From: Clostridiales bacterium
GTDB taxonomy: Bacteria > Bacillota > Clostridia > Christensenellales > Borkfalkiaceae
Assembly (NCBI GenBank): GCA_015069425.1
Contig: SVIP01000002.1
Location: forward strand, 102,048-166,047
Length of the DNA stretch: 64,000 nucleotides
Reading direction: 5' to 3'
The notes under the pieces: model-generated
What the model saw: the letters and a program-made list of their open reading frames with translations, nothing else
The model's database searches: none
Told to the model about the DNA's origin: nothing
In this document: positions 6,017-48,689 of the stretch, one piece after another
Layout of the letters: the number at the start of each line of letters is the position of its first letter
Position numbering within the stretch: position 1 is the first letter of the stretch
Position numbers and translations under genes: made by a program

Positions 6017-7236
6017 AATAAATCAATAACTCCTTTAACAGTGTCCTCTAAACTTCCACCGTTATCAATAGTAAAGTCTGCAAACTTTTCATAAAGTTCT
6101 TTTCTTTCTTCAAACAATTTTTTAACCGCTGTTAGGTCTTTAGAAAGCGGTCTACCTACCGTTGAAAGTTTTTCTATCGGTCTATCAATATAGAAAATCA
6201 CACCGTTTTGCTTTAATAAAAAGTAATTTTCCGCTCTTTTAACCGCACCGCCACCAGTTGAAATGATTTTTCCAGAAAGACAGCCAAACTCTTTTATAAC
6301 TTCGGTTTCTAAACTTCTAAAATAATCTTCGCCATCATCAGAAAAAATCTCGGGTATGCTTTTACCCGCCTTTTGTTCAATTTTTTGGTCAATATCAATG
6401 CACTCCATATCAAGTAAGGCTGAAAGGTTATTTGCCACCGTACTTTTCCCCGAGCCAGGCATACCGACAAGCACTATGTTTTTAACTTCCCTTTGCAGTT
6501 TTTCTAAAACGCTTTCAATAATACCGTCGTCAAACTTATCACTTAAAAACAAGTCCATTGCGTATTTTGCTTGTGCGACAAGCATTGAAAGTCCGTTCGT
6601 GTACTTTATTCCCCTTTCTCTTGCGTTAAAAAGCAATTTTGTTAAAGATGGATTATAAATAACGTCCGCTACGCCTAAAAGATTAGGGAATCTATTTATA
6701 TCAATAGGGCAATTATCCGTTTCGGGATACATTCCAACTGGCGTTGTATTGATTATAACTTCGGTCTCTATTAAATCATAACAGTTTTGATAATTATATT
6801 CGCCATTTCTTGAAATGGTTTTAGCTGACTTTGCGCCAAGCGTTTTTGCGACAGCTAGAGCCGTGTTTCTTGTTCCGCCACTGCCTAGAATTAGAACGCA
6901 CCTATCATGAAGTTCAATCTCCGCTTTTTTAAGCATATAAATCATACCTAAAAAATCGGTATTATAGCCTATTGTTTTTCCGTTTCTTTTTACAACCGTG
7001 TTGACTGCGCCTATTGCTTTCGCACTCTCGTCAACGAGATCAAGATAGGGCATTATTTGTTGTTTATAAGGAATTGTGACGTTAAAGCCTTTATATTCAC
7101 TCTCTTTAACAAATCTTTCAAGAGCGTCGCTTTCTAGTTCGACCAAGTCATATTGATATTTAGAAAAAAGCGTATGTATTTTTTTTGAGTAACTGTGCTT
7201 TAAGGTTTTACCTATAAGCGCAAACTTTTCTTTCAT
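6013..7236 (-). CDS. aroE/aroK: Fused shikimate dehydrogenase (N-terminal) / shikimate kinase (C-terminal)
   Basis: 407 aa. The N-terminal ~250 aa look like AroE (GSGGTRNTALA Rossmann loop). The C-terminal ~160 aa carry the P-loop GMPGSGKST and a shikimate-kinase-like sequence. Confidence 0.85.
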   Translation of the reverse strand: MKEKFALIGKTLKHSYSKKIHTLFSKYQYDLVELESDALERFVKESEYKGFNVTIPYKQQIMPYLDLVDESAKAIGAVNTVVKRNGKTIGYNTDFLGMIYMLKKAEIELHDRCVLILGSGGTRNTALAVAKTLGAKSAKTISRNGEYNYQNCYDLIETEVIINTTPVGMYPETDNCPIDINRFPNLLGVADVIYNPSLTKLLFNARERGIKYTNGLSMLVAQAKYAMDLFLSDKFDDGIIESVLEKLQREVKNIVLVGMPGSGKSTVANNLSALLDMECIDIDQKIEQKAGKSIPEIFSDDGEDYFRSLETEVIKEFGCLSGKIISTGGGAVKRAENYFLLKQNGVIFYIDRPIEKLSTVGRPLSKDLTAVKKLFEERKELYEKFADFTIDNGGSLEDTVKGVIDLL

Positions 7237-24839: not shown

Positions 24840-24957
24840 CTTTCTCCCCGTGCCAAAGTATTCTAGCACGGAAAGCAACTGATTTTTAGTAACATTTTAG
24901 TATTAAATTTGGATTTTTGTAGAAAGTGCTTCGTCTTACAAAGTCAGTATTATCGAT

Positions 24958-25074
24958 AAAGGATTAGATGCGAGCAGGTCAAGGCACGCGAGTATTTTGA
25001 TGGGGCGTGTACTTTTTGTACACAACCCGAGAAACACGGAGCGTAACACAGAGATGCGACGCATATAAACCTTT
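24958..25074 (+). repeat. Structured intergenic element, copy A
   Basis: Homologous to 39617-39714 and 39739-39855. Closing helix AAAGGATTAGATGCG / CGCATATAAACCTTT (13/15). Central hairpin GGGGCGTGTAC-TTTTT-GTACACAACCC. Strand is the orientation shared by all copies, not a proven transcript. Confidence 0.7.
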
Positions 25075-25075
25075 T

Positions 25076-26188
25076 TTACCCTTTCATAAAGGCGAGTATA
25101 ATATCATTTTGAACGTATAAGTACTCTTCTTTTATTTTTAAATTATCTCCGTTTTTTTCTAAAAACTGTGCTTTTTTGTTTAGTTCTACCTTGTATTCAT
25201 TATCAAAATCACTGTCAAAGGTCTTATTGTATTCTTTTATATTTAGTCCGTCTTCCGTACGAAGAGCGAGCATTATGAACTCAAACCTTGCATCAGTATC
25301 TTCAATTACATCAGAAGAAATTTCGGGAGATTTATTATAAATAACCGCATTCATATACTCGTCTATACTGAAAGTATTAGTAAATCTCCTATTTTCCATA
25401 AACGAACTTGCAGAAACACCAACGCCTATATACTCACCACGTTTCCAATAATTCATATTGTGGCGTGAGCGGTAACCGTCTAAGCAGAAATTAGATACTT
25501 CATAACGGTTAAAACCTTTTTCCTTTAAGTACGCCCTAATACCATCGTAAATATCCGCAACCTCGTCGTCGGAGAGCAATTCCCCGTTTAAGTAATCGGT
25601 ATAAATTGGCGTACCGACTTCTGGGGTTAGAGCGTAAACGGAAATGTGTTTTGCTCCACCTGCGATTGCCAAATCCGCCGTCTTTTTAACTTGTTCTAAA
25701 GTTTGGTTGCTTAATCCTATTAAAATATCCGCACTTATATTTTCACCTTTTAATAGATTACAACAATTTAAAAAGTCTTTTGCAGTGTGAATACGATTTA
25801 ATCTTTTAAGTTGGTCGTCATAACCTGTTTGTAGCCCTATAGAAAAGCGGTTTATTCCTACTGATTTATATTCTTTAATTTTTTCTTCGTCTACCGTACC
25901 GGGGTTAAGTTCAATAGTGATTTCCGCAGTTTCACGAACGTGAAAGCATTTTTTAATCTGCCTAATTGCACCCGCAATAAATTTTGCAGGAACAACTGAC
26001 GGAGTGCCACCACCAATATAAATGGTGTCTATAACTCTACCGGGATATTGCTTACTTCTTCCCTCAATTTCACGATAAAGGCAAGCAAAATAACTTTCCG
26101 CTTTGCCTATTTCTCTTGGGTATGACGCAAAATCACAGTATGTACATTTTTGTTTGCAAAAAGGCACGTGTAAATAAATTCCACTCAT
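25076..26188 (-). CDS. hemW: Radical SAM HemN-like protein (heme chaperone HemW type)
   Basis: Starts MSGIYLHVPFCKQKCTYCDF (CxxxCxxC radical SAM). The ORF-track extension to 26296 overlaps lepA. Conserved lepA-hemW synteny. Confidence 0.85.
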   Translation of the reverse strand: MSGIYLHVPFCKQKCTYCDFASYPREIGKAESYFACLYREIEGRSKQYPGRVIDTIYIGGGTPSVVPAKFIAGAIRQIKKCFHVRETAEITIELNPGTVDEEKIKEYKSVGINRFSIGLQTGYDDQLKRLNRIHTAKDFLNCCNLLKGENISADILIGLSNQTLEQVKKTADLAIAGGAKHISVYALTPEVGTPIYTDYLNGELLSDDEVADIYDGIRAYLKEKGFNRYEVSNFCLDGYRSRHNMNYWKRGEYIGVGVSASSFMENRRFTNTFSIDEYMNAVIYNKSPEISSDVIEDTDARFEFIMLALRTEDGLNIKEYNKTFDSDFDNEYKVELNKKAQFLEKNGDNLKIKEEYLYVQNDIILAFMKG

Positions 26189-39160: not shown

Positions 39161-39277
39161 TTAATCCTCGCCATTTAAGCGTTTATATAAAAGATAATAT
39201 GAAACGTTACCGGTTTTTTCAAACATTTCCCACGCAGAGTCAGCAGTATTTTTGGTCTGGTTCTTCTTTTTTTCCAT
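39161..39277 (-). CDS. yqzL: YqzL-family small protein (38 aa)
   Basis: Hand-translated MEKKKNQTKNTADSAWEMFEKTGNVSYYLLYKRLNGED. RBS GGGGGGAG. WxxFxxTGxxxxYLLYK resembles YqzL, which sits between era and recO in Bacillus. Below the ORF-track size cutoff. Confidence 0.6.
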   Translation of the reverse strand: MEKKKNQTKNTADSAWEMFEKTGNVSYYLLYKRLNGED

Positions 39278-39333
39278 ACTCCCCCCCTTTAGAGTAGTAT
39301 GCTTAATTTTCTATATTTAATACTCCATTATTT

Positions 39334-39585
39334 AATACGAGTATTTATCGTGAAACATATGTATCGAGTTAAGGCAATACGAGTATTTCTCGTGAAAAAT
39401 ACATATCAATCTAAAATAATACAAGTATTTCTCGTGAAACATACATATCAATCTAAAATAATACAAGTATTTCTCGTGAAACATACATATCAATCTAAAA
39501 TAATACAAGTATTTCTCGTGAAAAATACATATCAATCTAAAATAATACGAGTATTTCTCGTGCAATACTTGTATCCAACTAAAAA
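39334..39585. repeat. Tandem array, 6 x 42 bp, each unit with overlapping dyad symmetries
   Basis: Units start at 39334, 39376, 39418, 39460, 39502 and 39544. Consensus AATAC(G/A)AGTATTTCTCGTGAAA(A/C)ATACATATCAATCTAAAAT. The 39418 and 39460 units are identical. Confidence 0.9.
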
Positions 39586-39616
39586 ACAGAGATGCGCCTT
39601 AGCAAACCCTCGTGAA

Positions 39617-39714
39617 GAGGGATTAGAAACAAGCAGTTCAAGGCGCGTGAGTATTTCGACGGGACGTGTACTTCTTGTACACAACCCAAGAAACACGGAA
39701 CGCAACGCAGAGAT
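39617..39714 (+). repeat. Structured intergenic element, copy B (tandem partner, 3' arm decayed)
   Basis: About 95% identical to the core of copy C. Period of 121-122 nt marked by CAGAGAT at 39587, 39708 and 39830. Confidence 0.7.
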
Positions 39715-39738
39715 ATACTCTCAACAAACTCTAGTAAA

Positions 39739-39855
39739 GAGGGATTAGAAACGAGCAGTTCAAGGCGTGTAAGTATTTCGACGGGGCGTGTACTTTTTGT
39801 ACACAACCCAAGAAACACGGAACGCAACGCAGAGATATGAAGTTTATAATCCCTC
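39739..39855 (+). repeat. Structured intergenic element, copy C (closing helix includes the era stop codon)
   Basis: GAGGGATTAGAAAC (39739-39752) pairs with GTTTATAATCCCTC (39842-39855), 13/14. Core shared with copies A and B. Confidence 0.7.
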
Positions 39856-40725
39856 GTAACCGTATTGTTTCATTAATTGCGCACTATTCCTCCAATCTTC
39901 TTTAACCTTAACGTATGTAGTTAAAAAGACTTTTTTACCCAAAAACTTTTCCATATCTTGACGGGCGAAAGACGAAACTTCTTTTATGGCTTTACCACCT
40001 TTGCCGATTAAAATTGCTTTGTGGTTTGACTTTTCGCATACAATGTCAAGATTTATTTCGTACGTTCTTCCGCCGTCCATTAGCGCAAATTTATTTATGA
40101 TTATCGCAATGCCGTGCGGAATTTCCTTGTCAAATTTAAGAAGAATTTTTTCACGCATTATCTCTGAAATCATAAACTTTTCCGAACGGTCTGAAACGAT
40201 ATCTTCTTCAAAAAGTTTTCCGCCCTCAGGTAAATGCTTAAGTATAACTTTTATTAATTCTTTGACGTTTTTATTTTTTCTTGCCGATACGGGTACTATG
40301 TCAACATTTTCCTCACCAAGTTCTTTTAGTTCACTGATTAATAAACTCTCCGGCATAATATCCGTTTTGGAAAGTGCCAACACGGTTGGCACGTTTAAGC
40401 TAGAATATTTTTTAAGAAGTTCCCTATCCGTATCGCTTATTCCCTCGTGTGCATCCATTACAAATAATACCGCATCAACGTCCGCAACCGAGTCGTTAGT
40501 TGTTTTTTGCATAACTGAATTTAATAGATTATCCGCCTTATAAATGCCAGGCGTATCAATAAACGCTATTTGATAATCATCAGTTGTAAGAACTCCTAAA
40601 ATCCTATCTCTAGTAGTTTGAGGCTTTGGCGACACGATGGCTATTTTTTCTCCAACCATAACGTTTATCAAGGTGCTTTTTCCTGCATTTGCCCTACCCA
40701 CTACGGCAACAAATCCGCTTTTCAT
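39844..40725 (-). CDS. era: GTPase Era
   Basis: 293 aa. GRANAGKST, DTPG and SKTD motifs plus a C-terminal KH domain. Confidence 0.95.
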   Translation of the reverse strand: MKSGFVAVVGRANAGKSTLINVMVGEKIAIVSPKPQTTRDRILGVLTTDDYQIAFIDTPGIYKADNLLNSVMQKTTNDSVADVDAVLFVMDAHEGISDTDRELLKKYSSLNVPTVLALSKTDIMPESLLISELKELGEENVDIVPVSARKNKNVKELIKVILKHLPEGGKLFEEDIVSDRSEKFMISEIMREKILLKFDKEIPHGIAIIINKFALMDGGRTYEINLDIVCEKSNHKAILIGKGGKAIKEVSSFARQDMEKFLGKKVFLTTYVKVKEDWRNSAQLMKQYGYEGL

Positions 40726-46295: not shown

Positions 46296-46754
46296 ATGAA
46301 CAGTTTTAAATTTCGCTATACAAAAAGCGTATGGGTGCTTTTAATAATCGTTCTCATTTTATCGGCTTTAGGCATTGGCTGGAACGTGTTTAATCTTGTA
46401 ACTTTTTTAAATGAAGGCGCGATAAAAATTGTGGCTTATTCTCTAATTATTCTTTTGACGGCATTTTTGTTCGTTTTCGTTCTGAGCGTTATGGCTTGCG
46501 GTAGATATTTAATCAAAGACAATTATTTAATACAAAATTTTGGATTTATTAGCACTAAGACGCCATTAAGCGCCGTGCTTTCTATTATACACTTTAAAAA
46601 AAGCGATAAATTAGTTGTTTATTTTAAGGACGCTAAATACACGGTAATCGTTATCTCTCCAACCGAATATGACGATTTTATAAGTGCGTTAAGAAAACAA
46701 AATCCCTCAATCGCTTTCGATTGTAGGATTGACGGCGAAGATTTGCCCGAATAA
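46296..46754 (+). CDS. Hypothetical membrane protein, two N-terminal TM helices plus bacterial PH-like C-terminal domain (tentative)
   Basis: 152 aa, RBS GGAGGA. Architecture resembles YdbS/YdbT-type proteins. Weak call. Confidence 0.45.
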   Translation: MNSFKFRYTKSVWVLLIIVLILSALGIGWNVFNLVTFLNEGAIKIVAYSLIILLTAFLFVFVLSVMACGRYLIKDNYLIQNFGFISTKTPLSAVLSIIHFKKSDKLVVYFKDAKYTVIVISPTEYDDFISALRKQNPSIAFDCRIDGEDLPE

Positions 46755-46790
46755 TTTTTTATTTAACTGAAAAAATTTTTTCTTAAACGG

Positions 46791-46819
46791 TTGACAATAT
46801 TATTTTATAAGAGTAAACT
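46791..46819 (+). promoter_or_regulatory. Sigma-A promoter of the long mgtE leader (TTGACA, 17 nt, TAAACT)
   Basis: Hexamers at 46791-46796 and 46814-46819. I found no other good promoter between here and the M-box. Confidence 0.55.
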
Positions 46820-46846
46820 GTTTTTATAAATTGTTTAAATATTTTG

Positions 46847-46969
46847 TTTTTAAGTATTAGAAACGAGTTAGGCGAGGCTCGACAAGGCGTGGGGTGAGAT
46901 AGACCGTCTGGTCATCTAAATCCACGACGCAGTCAGTAAACGATGCATAACGAAGTTCATAACACATTA
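46847..46969 (+). repeat. Structured intergenic element, copy D1 (in mgtE leader)
   Basis: 127-nt tandem period with D2, about five substitutions between them. Core hairpin CGTGG...AGATAGACC-GTCT-GGTCATCT...CCACG. The 3' arm is degenerate. Confidence 0.7.
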
Positions 46970-46973
46970 TATA

Positions 46974-47099
46974 TTTTTAAGTGTTAGAAACGAGTTAGGC
47001 AAGGCTCGACAAGGCGTGGGGCGAGATAGACCGTCTGGTCATCTAAATCCACGACGCAGTCAGTAAACGATGCATAACGAAGTTTATAACACTTAAAAA
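46974..47099 (+). repeat. Structured intergenic element, copy D2 (in mgtE leader, intact closing helix)
   Basis: TTTTTAAGTGTTAGAAAC (46974-46991) pairs with GTTTATAACACTTAAAAA (47082-47099), 17/18. Shares TTAGAAACGAG, CAAGGCGTG, ACGCAG and GAAGTTTATAA blocks with copies B and C; copy A keeps diverged versions of these blocks (e.g. TTAGATGCGAG, CAAGGCACG, ACACAG). Confidence 0.7.
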
Positions 47100-47265
47100 A
47101 AGACCGGTAGGTAAGGCTACCTTAGGGATACGGACTGCTGCCGCAAAATAGTGGAGACACTATGAGATGGTTGAACAGACCACGTCGAAAACAAGGCGTG
47201 ATTTAATGCAGTTTCACTGCCCTACGGTGCTAAAGCCAGAATGGTTGCCCGAGATTTCGGTGTAG
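47100..47265 (+). promoter_or_regulatory. M-box (ykoK-type) Mg2+ riboswitch aptamer
   Basis: GGTAGGTAAGGCT, GCTGCTGCC, ATGGTTGAACAG, AAGGCGTGATTTAATGCAG and GTGCTAAAGCC blocks in canonical order. P1 is ACCG/CGGT. Lies directly upstream of mgtE. Confidence 0.85.
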
Positions 47266-47270
47266 TTTTT

Positions 47271-47304
47271 CCTGCCACGTTTAGTGCAGGATTTTTTATT
47301 TTTC
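47271..47304 (+). terminator. Riboswitch expression-platform terminator
   Basis: CCTGC-N10-GCAGG followed by ATTTTTTATTTTT. The stem is short, so confidence is moderate. Confidence 0.5.
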
Positions 47305-47315
47305 AGGAGGTGCTT

Positions 47316-48689
47316 ATGGATAGAGATTTACAGACGGTTTTTGAAAAACTCTCTTTTTGTTTTGAAACACGTAAGTTTGCAGATTTAAGAATTGTTTTGC
47401 TCGATTTAGAGCCAGCGGATATTGCACAATTTATGGAAAACAATCTTAATGAAAAAGAGCAACTTATGTTTTTTAGACTTCTGCCAAAAGAACTTGCCAG
47501 TGACGTATTTATTGAAACGGACACCGATACTCAAGAACGCTTTATTAAAGCGTTTACCGATAAAGAACTTAAAGCGGTTATAGACGATATGTTTCTTGAC
47601 GACACGGTCGATATTATTGAAGAAATGCCGGCAAACGTGGTTAAGAGAATTTTGAAAAACTCCGACCCTGAAAACCGCAAACAAATAAACGAGCTCTTAG
47701 TTTACCCTGATGATTCTGCGGGTTCTATTATGACCACCGAATACGTTTCTCTCTCCGCAACAATGTCAGTAGAGAGTGCGTTTGAAAGAATTAGGCGAAC
47801 GGGAGTTAATAAGGAAACCATATATACTTGTTACGTTACGGATAGAAAAAAGCGTCTTTTAGGAGTTGTTACGGTTAGGGATTTATTGCTTGCAGATAAA
47901 AGCGAACTAATTGCCGATATTATGGACTCAAACGTAATTACCCTTAACACCTTAGAAGATAAAGAACAAGTTGCACTAAAGTTTTCAAAATATGACTTTA
48001 TCGCAATGCCTGTTATCGACAAAGAGGGTTGTTTGGTTGGTATAGTAACAATCGACGACGCTGTCGACGTTATCCAAGAAGAGGCAACCGAAGATATTCA
48101 AAAGATGGCTGCTATGCTCCCAACCGAAAAGCCTTACTTAAAGCAATCTATTTGGAGCATTTGGAAAGCCAGAGTGCCGTGGCTACTTCTACTTATGATT
48201 TCCGCAACCTTTACAAGTATGATACTTTCTCATTACGAAAATAGTCTTGCACTGGTTGCAAACGGTGTGCTTTACGCTTTCGTGCCTATGCTCATGGGTA
48301 CGGCAGGTAATGCGGGAAACCAAACCTCAGTTACGGTAATTCGTGCTTTAGCACTTGGCGAAGTGGAATTTAGAAACGTGTTAAAGGTTATATTTAAAGA
48401 ACTCGGTGCGTCTTTCGTGCTAGGTTTAACCGTTTCTATCGCTTGCTTTTTAAAACTTTGGCTAATTGACAGCCTTTACAATAAAGTAACCATTGAAGTG
48501 GCGTTTATAGTTTCAATAGTATTGCTTTTAGCAATAATGATGGCAAAATTGGTCGGTTGTATTCTTCCACTTATCGCAAAAAAATGTAAACTTGACCCAG
48601 CGGTTGTTGCAAGCCCATTCATGACAACTATCGTCGACGTGTTAACTCTTGTAATTTACTGTGTAATTTCAATTGCAATCTTAGGATAA
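47316..48689 (+). CDS. mgtE: Magnesium transporter MgtE
   Basis: Starts MDRDLQTVFEKL with RBS AGGAGG. N-domain, tandem CBS domains, and a TM domain with GNAGNQ and PFMTTIVD motifs. The ORF-track start at 47241 lies in the riboswitch. Confidence 0.95.
   Translation: MDRDLQTVFEKLSFCFETRKFADLRIVLLDLEPADIAQFMENNLNEKEQLMFFRLLPKELASDVFIETDTDTQERFIKAFTDKELKAVIDDMFLDDTVDIIEEMPANVVKRILKNSDPENRKQINELLVYPDDSAGSIMTTEYVSLSATMSVESAFERIRRTGVNKETIYTCYVTDRKKRLLGVVTVRDLLLADKSELIADIMDSNVITLNTLEDKEQVALKFSKYDFIAMPVIDKEGCLVGIVTIDDAVDVIQEEATEDIQKMAAMLPTEKPYLKQSIWSIWKARVPWLLLLMISATFTSMILSHYENSLALVANGVLYAFVPMLMGTAGNAGNQTSVTVIRALALGEVEFRNVLKVIFKELGASFVLGLTVSIACFLKLWLIDSLYNKVTIEVAFIVSIVLLLAIMMAKLVGCILPLIAKKCKLDPAVVASPFMTTIVDVLTLVIYCVISIAILG

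Follow-up and report, generated by a model that had tools for sequence, protein, structure and literature searches.

The leader of mgtE contains two tandem structured units, D1 and D2, between a putative promoter and a genuine M-box (Mg2+) riboswitch. These units are members of a large family of imperfect hairpins that are 85-125 nt in length. They are probably passenger copies, within the mgtE leader, of a dispersed, non-coding, REP/MITE-like hairpin repeat. The window, which is the whole 64-kb stretch of DNA that was analysed, holds exactly five copies of the family at three loci, all on the + strand, as identified with a covariance model (R1). The riboswitch side of the locus appears to be ordinary, with a repeat that would have landed in the leader; the positional and strand rule of the family is unusually sharp. 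An earlier note on this DNA had described the tandem units, the promoter, the M-box, and the related copies elsewhere, and all of these were found. It had also described M-box-like fragments within the units, but these did not survive an Rfam scan and shuffling.

The mgtE leader and its two hairpin units

The features of the locus and the other family copies in the window are collected in Table 1.

Table 1. Features of the mgtE leader region and of the remaining hairpin copies, as positions in the window.
Feature	Position	Strand	Remarks
bPH_4-domain gene	ends 46754		first item in region order, ahead of the mgtE promoter
Putative mgtE leader promoter	46791..46819	+	sigma-70-type, TTGACA-17-TAAACT, consensus 10/12
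D1, upstream hairpin copy	46848..46971	+	D-type (two nested loop modules), closing helix weakened
D2, downstream intact hairpin copy	46975..47098	+	closed by 17/18 helix TTTTTAAGTGTTAGAAAC / GTTTATAACACTTAAAAA
M-box (Mg2+) riboswitch aptamer	47096..47256	+	genuine; RF00380, 96.5 bits
Terminator-like hairpin and U-run	47264..47299	+	sequence reading: CCTGCCACGTTTAGTGCAGG then TTTTTTATTTTT
mgtE, magnesium transporter gene	47316..48689	+	457 aa; Pfam domains
E1, first of tandem pair E1/E2 (39614..39858)	39614..39735	+	single-module type; R1 51.3 bits
E2, second of tandem pair	39736..39858	+	single-module type; R1 100.3 bits
era (ORF)	39844..40725	-	stop codon inside the TTATAA end of E2
F, single copy	24955..25077	+	R1 97.2 bits; also aligned and folded

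A consensus scan of the + strand of the region returned no promoter match other than TTGACA-17-TAAACT, in agreement with the earlier note, which had found no other good promoter. It would serve as the promoter of the mgtE leader, a function read from its sequence, and transcription of the leader is predicted to start near 46826. D1 and D2 are sense to that predicted transcript, as had been described. The aptamer downstream of D2 matches the full-length model RF00380 well above the Rfam gathering score of 44. The hairpin and U-run that follow it are probably the expression platform of the M-box. A simple terminator scan made no call at this hairpin. The same hairpin and U-tail are also visible in a chance alignment from a permissive Rfam scan. 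An AGGAGG and then the ATG of mgtE both lie 3' of the hairpin. MgtE_N, CBS, and MgtE domains (Pfam) are present on an identical protein in public contigs, and the homologues of MgtE carry the name magnesium transporter.

The two structured units of 127 nt were borne out by Tandem Repeats Finder (46847-47092, period 127, 1.9 copies, 96% matches) and by folding. They do differ by few substitutions, but the count is 8 of 127 positions and not about five, as had been stated. D2 folds into a single long imperfect hairpin (-45.7 kcal/mol, z = -7.1) with the expected closing helix. The fold of D1 is weaker (-32.4 kcal/mol, z = -2.75), owing to decay of its closing helix; the decay of its 3' arm had been pointed out before and is seen in the folds. 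The core hairpin that had been described is present in both. In D1/D2 and their nearest relatives, which are referred to as D-type, the loop module is present twice, with one copy nested in the other. Model R1, which was built from copies of the element, matched both D1 (74.9 bits, E = 2.7e-14) and D2 (91.6 bits, E = 5.2e-18).

D1 and D2 do not appear to be related to the M-box. A permissive Rfam scan of 46700-47320 at E<=10 returned only the true aptamer, and there was no RF00380 match in either unit. The best local alignment between D2 and the aptamer is an exact 10-mer, ACAAGGCGTG; its score is equalled or exceeded in 58 of 1000 shuffles of D2 that preserve dinucleotides, which is the level of chance. 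The strings GTTAGGCGAGGCTC and AAGGCGTG, which the earlier note had quoted as pieces of an M-box, are recurrent motifs of the hairpin repeat family and occur far from any M-box. Homology to the M-box was therefore rejected, on Rfam scans at both the gathering threshold and E<=10 as well as on the shuffle test. It had been proposed that D1/D2 are decayed or internally deleted duplicates of the M-box that seeded the dispersed family. The shared 10-mer and a loose likeness of GTTAGGCGAGGCTC to the 5' strand of the M-box are all that speaks for this. At the level of the tools used, this proposal is refuted and has next to no probability left, given the absence of any RF00380 signal, the chance level of the 10-mer, and motifs that are family-wide, in phyla and at loci that have no M-box and no connection to magnesium.

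A dispersed family of imperfect hairpins

The related copies that had been noticed elsewhere in the window, E1/E2 and F, are both recovered by model R1 (Table 1). D1/D2, E1/E2, and F have in common a 5' (R)TTAGAAAC-RAG, a CAAGGC-type loop, a variable apical hairpin, an AACGCAG-type loop, and a 3' GTTTATAA. E1 and E2 are antisense to era, and family copies are found at the same place at the era locus in relatives. Copy F is antisense to both of its neighbouring genes, the adjacent ORF ending 6 nt from it, and its basal stem carries a compensatory variant, AUGCG/CGCAU. The strand that carries D1/D2, E, and F is the C-rich one in the window (GC skew -0.14), which with three sites is a hint only.

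The family was sampled beyond the window in two ways. The first sample of the species-representative genome collection was chosen by a pattern that contained CAAGGC and ACGCAG. It gave 38 loci, 34 of them real family members; the four chance matches do not match model R1. This model was built from 38 copies. When it was run on the loci from the genome collection and the viral loci, there were 52 matches at E<=0.001, and the 45 that fell below E = 1e-7 were spread over 36 unrelated loci. Extra copies were also found with R1 inside the 8-kb loci around the sampled sites. The apparent invariance of CAAGGC/ACGCAG is partly circular because the first sampling pattern forced those motifs. As a check on this bias, a metagenome collection was sampled with a pattern of the ends only, which gave at least 120 loci. 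There were 81 unique sequences among the matches listed, and most are clear members. Exact CAAGGC is present in just 36 of these 81, and the loops are better written as YNAGGM and AACNNNG.

More than 100 copies were found outside the window, in Clostridia, Bacillaceae, Fibrobacter, and one prophage, among others. The hosts include Christensenellaceae, Candidatus Scatosoma, other Clostridia MAGs, four Fibrobacter MAGs, Pseudalkalibacillus, Bacillus, Tepidibacillus, and one Parasutterella bin. Pseudalkalibacillus sp. A8 (NZ_CP174509.1) is an example of a carrier with a complete genome. The prophage-like contig is from IMG/VR and is the only real copy-bearing contig in two scans of that collection. 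Searches of phage and plasmid collections gave no blastn match to the family. A phage or plasmid origin was rejected on these two results. Rfam 15 had no relevant match at E<=10, either to D1/D2 or to a consensus-like array (L041), and an earlier description of the family was not found in the literature searched, by sequence string or keyword. The family is apparently uncatalogued, and apparently abundant in poorly studied gut Clostridia.

The hairpin structure is supported by the pairing of its members. When 50 copies were aligned to the model, 90.8% of the cells formed standard pairs, and double-sided changes were seen in 20 of 24 pairs (287 cells); these numbers are inflated, as the alignment was fitted to the model. 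None of 500 shuffles reached the pairing and covariation values of the family, and pairing fell to 29-46% in a control in which the 3' partners were slid. Pairing also extends beyond the sequence that was used for sampling. In the 9-nt flanks outside the ends-only pattern, at least 7 of 9 positions pair in 62 of 73 copies among the matches listed. The inner basal stem covaries from AAAC/GUUU to AUGC/GCAU, AACC/GGUU, and UUGC/GCAA, and a G.A mismatch beside UUA/UAA is kept throughout the family. Terminal inverted repeats are present, consisting of TTAGAAAC / GTTTATAA and an outer helix of 6-10 bp.

The two strands do not fold equally well. On the purine-rich TTAGAAAC...GTTTATAA strand there are 69 G.T pairs vs 18 A.C pairs. 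This strand is the more stable one in 45 of 50 copies with RNA parameters, by a mean of 5.5 kcal/mol, and in 49 of 50 with DNA parameters. The same is true for 64 of the 73 ends-only copies among the matches listed.

Several known roles were considered for these hairpins and rejected. The CAAGGC / AACGCAG loop cannot be read as a K-turn or loop-E motif, as the bulge is followed by GC and not by tandem G.A pairs (sequence reading). A terminator role does not fit D, E, or F, at which no terminator-like site was called on either strand and no U-tract is present; the bases of the helices are A/U-rich, and A-runs lie on the 3' side. The hairpins do not appear to be independent sRNA genes either. 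Upstream of 42 arrays, the reverse strand gives promoter-like scores that are just as good, with no promoter at a fixed distance in the orientation of the element, and no convincing promoter was found upstream of E or F.

Turnover and position of the copies

The mgtE locus was compared with the same locus from four related genomes, whose MgtE proteins are 87-96% identical to that of the window. In the three relatives that were measured, the mgtE DNA is ~84% identical and third codon positions are ~60% identical. The promoter and the M-box are kept, and the copy number of the repeat is variable. All four relatives retain the -35 box, the ATAAGAGTAAACT block, and an M-box of 92-100 bits. The -35 box and the ATAAGAGTAAACT block are thus invariant across five species, and two of these have no repeat before the M-box. 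The window has two copies between the promoter and the M-box. One relative (L049) has a single copy there that is orthologous to D2, and another (L048) has one copy orthologous to D2 and a wrecked copy upstream of it. In L050 there is no copy in the leader, and the downstream side of mgtE has one that abuts the stop of a convergent gene. The leader of L047 also has no copy and retains just TTTTAG-GTTTATAAAAGCTTAAAA, a match to the element's 3' end. A further leader from the same strain as the window (L003) has one hybrid of D1 and D2, which is either a real recombinant or an assembly collapse. In the leaders without a repeat, the -10 box is ~60 nt from the M-box. From this presence and absence it follows that the units are an insertion into a pre-existing short leader, and on this comparison D1 and D2 are dispensable for the unit of promoter, M-box, and mgtE.

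The earlier note had also suggested that D1/D2 are extra cis-regulatory RNA modules that act on mgtE in series with the M-box. The units are sense to the predicted leader and lie ~30 nt 3' of the conserved promoter, D2 has a very stable fold, and the site has kept a copy in three lineages with 91-94% identity, all of which speaks for such modules. However, the leaders of L047 and L050 keep promoter, M-box, and mgtE and have no copy, L048 has a wreck for an upstream copy and the window a weakened one, and the same sequence is found at the era and queA loci. It is also rare for a copy to be sense to the gene at its GTTTATAA end (4 of 56 copies among the matches listed). Modules in series with the M-box are thus unsupported and quite improbable. 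A repeat insertion, which was the remaining suggestion of the earlier note, is favoured by the evidence; strict neutrality is not claimed.

The conservation of the copies is at the level of the family. The copies in the mgtE leader are 91-94% identical between species vs ~60% at the third codon positions of mgtE. In one genome, the copy in the mgtE leader (L049) and the copy at the era locus (L052) are 96% identical. In another genome, the era-locus copy (L054) and the copy downstream of mgtE (L050) are also 96% identical and have a private inner-helix variant in common. Between L052 and L054, which are orthologous copies at the era locus, identity is only 77%. The conservation is therefore not specific to mgtE, and the D-type identity matrix implies that either gene conversion or turnover from a master copy keeps the copies of one genome similar. 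In Fibrobacter, three of four species have elements that are 98-99% identical, and identity to the fourth is 93-94%, vs 76-90% in the flanking coding DNA. Within-genome homogenisation could explain this conservation, and real purifying selection could as well. The conservation of the family is stronger than would be expected for junk.

Copies are also duplicated, exchanged, and lost. Arrays are made by tandem duplication, in which the complete unit is copied together with both strands of its outer helix. Where two units adjoin, the distal arm of one pairs with the proximal arm of the next to give a small hairpin, and inner copies of arrays lose the GTTTATAA end. At the queA/tgt junction, different subtypes are found side by side in different genomes, and some sites are therefore hot spots. 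Remnants with an internal deletion that fuses their 5' and 3' ends are common. One relative (L053) has lost the element at its era locus by deletion between GCAT microhomologies, and the first 17 nt of the element were kept. The leader of L047 and this era locus both look like deletions, as each apparent empty site retains a terminal piece of the element. The junction of TTAG with GTTTATAA in L047 is suggestive of precise excision, but this was rejected because the 'empty' era site is a microhomology deletion and remnants are common. No clean empty site was found that would define a target-site duplication, and mobility of the family is only presumed. As a guess, a TTAA target with a TA duplication would fit the TTA...TAA ends.

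At the era locus, the C-terminus of Era (...YGYEG[L/V/T]) has retained the native length. The last codons of era are complementary to the distal arm of the outer helix, and where these codons differ between species the arm differs with them (GAGGGA/TCCCTC, GAAGGCG/CGCCTTC, GAAGG/CCTTC). This tracking may be due to selection for pairing or, equally, to template switching between the palindrome arms. Such template switching is a known mutational process at quasipalindromes, and it can give compensatory changes without selection.

The copies follow a rule of position. In the first sample, both neighbouring genes are opposite to the folding strand at 27 of 39 sites. The rule was examined further with 64 hairpin-like intergenic copies from the ends-only pattern, among the matches listed. 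In this independent sample, 52 of 56 copies among the matches listed have an opposite-strand gene at their GTTTATAA end, and in 43 of those 52 the stop codon of that gene lies within -8..+12 nt of the end of the core. Often, the stop codon of the abutted gene is the TAA of TTATAAAC itself. The neighbours are housekeeping genes, as in ruvC-ruvA-ruvB-queA and tgt-yajC, era and yqzL-recO, rplJ and rplL, pdxT and serS, divIVA and ileS, and Rrf2 and cysteine desulfurase. In the prophage, copies sit at the junctions of head-closure with tail-terminator genes and of tape-measure with minor-tail genes. No recurrent transposase, RAYT, or recombinase was found beside the elements in ~150 loci. All-against-all clustering of the neighbouring ORFs returned only housekeeping and ribosomal-protein genes, and a linked transposase or recombinase was rejected on that basis. 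In the mgtE leader, the flanking genes have the same orientation as the folding strand, and the riboswitch lies at the GTTTATAA end. This placement is an exception, because typical copies face a stop codon on the opposite strand.

In a rival reading, the family would not be a selfish repeat but a structured element at the 3' ends of genes that is useful to the host. The mgtE copies would then be displaced members, and the element could be an ssDNA or cruciform signal on the template strand, or an RNA from the antisense strand. The closeness of the stop codon points in this direction, and so does the antisense position of the folded strand, which is the more stable one in ~90% of copies. Other points in its favour are the Fibrobacter copy that is better conserved than the adjacent coding DNA, the compensatory tracking of era's last codons by the outer helix, and copies that are tolerated within rplJ-rplL and phage late operons. 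The conservation in Fibrobacter, the identity among the mgtE leaders, and the era-codon tracking could reflect such a function at the level of the host instead of homogenisation. However, these elements have no fixed-distance promoter in their own orientation and no terminator-type U-tract, and close relatives readily lose or wreck copies or swap them for another subtype at the same site. Purifying selection can also be mimicked by within-genome homogenisation, and compensatory changes can be produced by template switching. An element that serves the host is a minority reading and rather unlikely.

The preferred reading is that D1/D2 are passengers. An ancestor of the lineage would have acquired one copy of the repeat between the mgtE promoter and the M-box, and this copy would later have been duplicated in tandem to give D1 and D2. 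Copying and homogenisation would take place at the level of DNA, possibly by gene conversion, by template switching across the palindrome arms, or by an enzyme that recognises the folded strand. Transcription from the conserved promoter would give D1/D2 as two hairpins at the 5' end of the RNA, followed by an ordinary switch of M-box, terminator, and mgtE. The two hairpins would not sense Mg2+ and at most would alter the stability or processing of the leader. For mgtE, a false lead is thus removed, as the long leader does not appear to be a compound or tandem magnesium sensor. Since the leader is an ordinary M-box with a repeat upstream, annotation pipelines should not count the units as parts of the riboswitch. 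The family could also possibly serve as a marker for strain typing and for the detection of assembly errors at tandem copies.

Comparison with known repeats and recombination sites

REP/BIME and MITE-like repeats such as ERIC come closest to the family in lifestyle, and integron attC sites do so in geometry. The M-box (RF00380) adjoins D2 in the same leader and has one 10-mer in common with it, but there is no detectable homology of sequence or structure, and the hairpin family is independent of magnesium genes.

Like REP/BIME (REPIN) elements, the hairpins are short imperfect palindromes with many dispersed copies and frequent tandem clusters. They lie mostly just after genes, within or between operons. 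They are intergenic and homogeneous within a genome, with five copies at three loci in the 64 kb of the window, and the strand-specific folding is presumably read by an enzyme in both cases. In contrast to REP, the family forms one longer rod of 85-125 nt with conserved asymmetric internal loops. The GT[AG]G head and palindrome of 20-40 nt, often in inverted doublets, are absent, and the conserved head is TTAG. REP elements are proteobacterial and come with RAYT transposases, whereas this family is found in Firmicutes and Fibrobacter and no RAYT gene was seen nearby. It also abuts the stop codon directly, with the better-folding strand antisense to that gene.

ERIC/IRU, Correia, RUP, BOX, and bcr1 elements are also intergenic imperfect palindromes, of ~100-130 nt, with relatives that differ in copy number and in presence/absence. 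ERIC/IRU and MITE-like elements occasionally land in leaders and are co-transcribed there. However, there is no sequence similarity to them, no target-site duplication or parent insertion sequence was identified, and the strong rule of orientation and position relative to the stop codon sets the family apart.

The likeness to attC lies in a site that begins on or across the stop codon of the ORF before it and in a functional folded strand that is antisense to that ORF. Structure that is conserved above sequence, the length (57-141 nt for attC), and the occurrence in arrays are further points of likeness. The family differs in its ends, which are TAGAAAC / GTTTATA and do not agree with the R''/R' consensus RYYYAAC / GTTRRRY. 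AAC/GTT is not fixed, as AAAC/GTTT is swapped for ATGC/GCAT, AACC/GGTT, or TTGC/GCAA in several copies. It is flanked by housekeeping operons and phage structural genes and not by promoterless cassettes, and no integrase or attI was seen. Classical attC sites were therefore rejected, as both the box consensus and the gene context fail.

To our knowledge, a folded strand that is antisense to the gene whose stop codon it covers is otherwise a geometry of integron attC sites alone. It is possible, if somewhat doubtful, that the TTAGAAAC...GTTTATAA hairpins are an undescribed class of element that would be recognised in folded, single-stranded form on the strand antisense to the stop-covered gene. 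If so, a dedicated enzyme as yet unknown, or a host function at the 3' ends of genes, would be implied, and the copies in the mgtE leader would be rare members that are on the sense strand and transcribed. If a dedicated enzyme or a host role underlies the position rule, REP/RAYT or attC/IntI biology would have a counterpart in Firmicutes in this family.

Recurrent placements between housekeeping genes

The junction of queA and tgt is a hot spot for insertion or retention of copies of the hairpin-repeat family. Copies were located there in four genomes (Table), and the combination of subtypes differs from genome to genome. The C-terminus of QueA ends in a leucine codon followed by the stop (TTA TAA) in 4/4 of these genomes, with the stop lying within the end of the element.

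A further copy was observed in the secE-nusG-rplKAJL cluster, between rplJ (L10) and rplL (L7/L12), where it is antisense and abuts the rplJ stop codon. The same placement recurs at about 40 loci from human-gut metagenomes (e.g., L060, L080, L103, and L106) and belongs to one uncultured Clostridia species that has often been sampled. This gap is a surprising site for a 106-nt hairpin.

Coordinates of family copies and associated features
Feature	Source	Position	Strand	Remark
queA/tgt copies	L014	2198-2475		
queA/tgt copies	L023	4668-4917		
queA/tgt copies	L026	5682-5938		
queA/tgt copies	L031	3542-3644		
rplJ/rplL copy	L012	5816-5939		
mgtE-leader copy	L003	1828-1954		same-strain contig
prophage-like, copy 1	L007	5293-5417		
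prophage-like, copy 2	L007	10113-10236		
weak model match	window	6285-6329	-	
tandem repeat	window	39333-39562		42-nt unit, 5.5 copies, 92% matches; between E array and yqzL/recO
38-aa ORF	window	39161-39277	-	between era and recO

The mgtE leader and era-recO spacer

A contig of the same strain (L003; ENA megahit k141) carries one copy in the mgtE leader, which corresponds to D1 in its 5' half and to D2 in its 3' half; D1 and D2 are the two tandem copies in this leader in the window. Compared with the window, there is an exact 127-nt deletion that merges D1 and D2. The hybrid copy is either a true recombinant in the population or an assembly collapse of the tandem repeat.

The 42-nt repeat lies beside the E array, the tandem family pair antisense to era. 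Each unit contains a small hairpin, ACGAGAAATACTCGT, as well as weak promoter-like hexamers on both strands. The related genomes compared (4/4) lack the repeat in their era-recO spacer. The 38-aa ORF, MEKKKNQTKNTADSAWEMFEKTGNVSYYLLYKRLNGED, falls under the 50-aa cut-off of the ORF listing for this region. At the era locus of a relative (L053), the homologue of this ORF has been called as a gene and matches Pfam YqzL weakly. Elsewhere in the window, the family covariance model R1 gave one weak match (15.9 bits, E = 0.39), which is probably an unrelated A/T-rich hairpin.

Parasutterella-labelled, Fibrobacter and prophage-like contigs

Two tandem copies are present upstream of tgt-yajC in a bin labelled Parasutterella excrementihominis (L039). 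Its tgt-yajC genes group with Christensenellaceae homologues by clustering of neighbouring ORFs, and the contig has a G+C content of 42%. The label may reflect mis-binning rather than a genuine occurrence in a betaproteobacterium.

Four Fibrobacter MAGs (L015, L021, L029, and L035) possess an orthologous copy flanked by genes for a PLP-dependent (Orn/DAP/Arg-type) decarboxylase and a beta-lactamase-fold protein. The copy is 98-99% identical among three species and 93-94% identical to the fourth; the flanking coding DNA has 76-90% identity in the same comparison. The outer helix shows one compensatory change, GAG/CTC to GAA/TTC.

Two copies were also observed in a prophage-like IMG/VR contig (L007). 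These occupy the head-closure/tail-terminator and tape-measure/minor-tail gaps, both antisense to the late operon. This contig is a possible vehicle for spread of the family between taxa.
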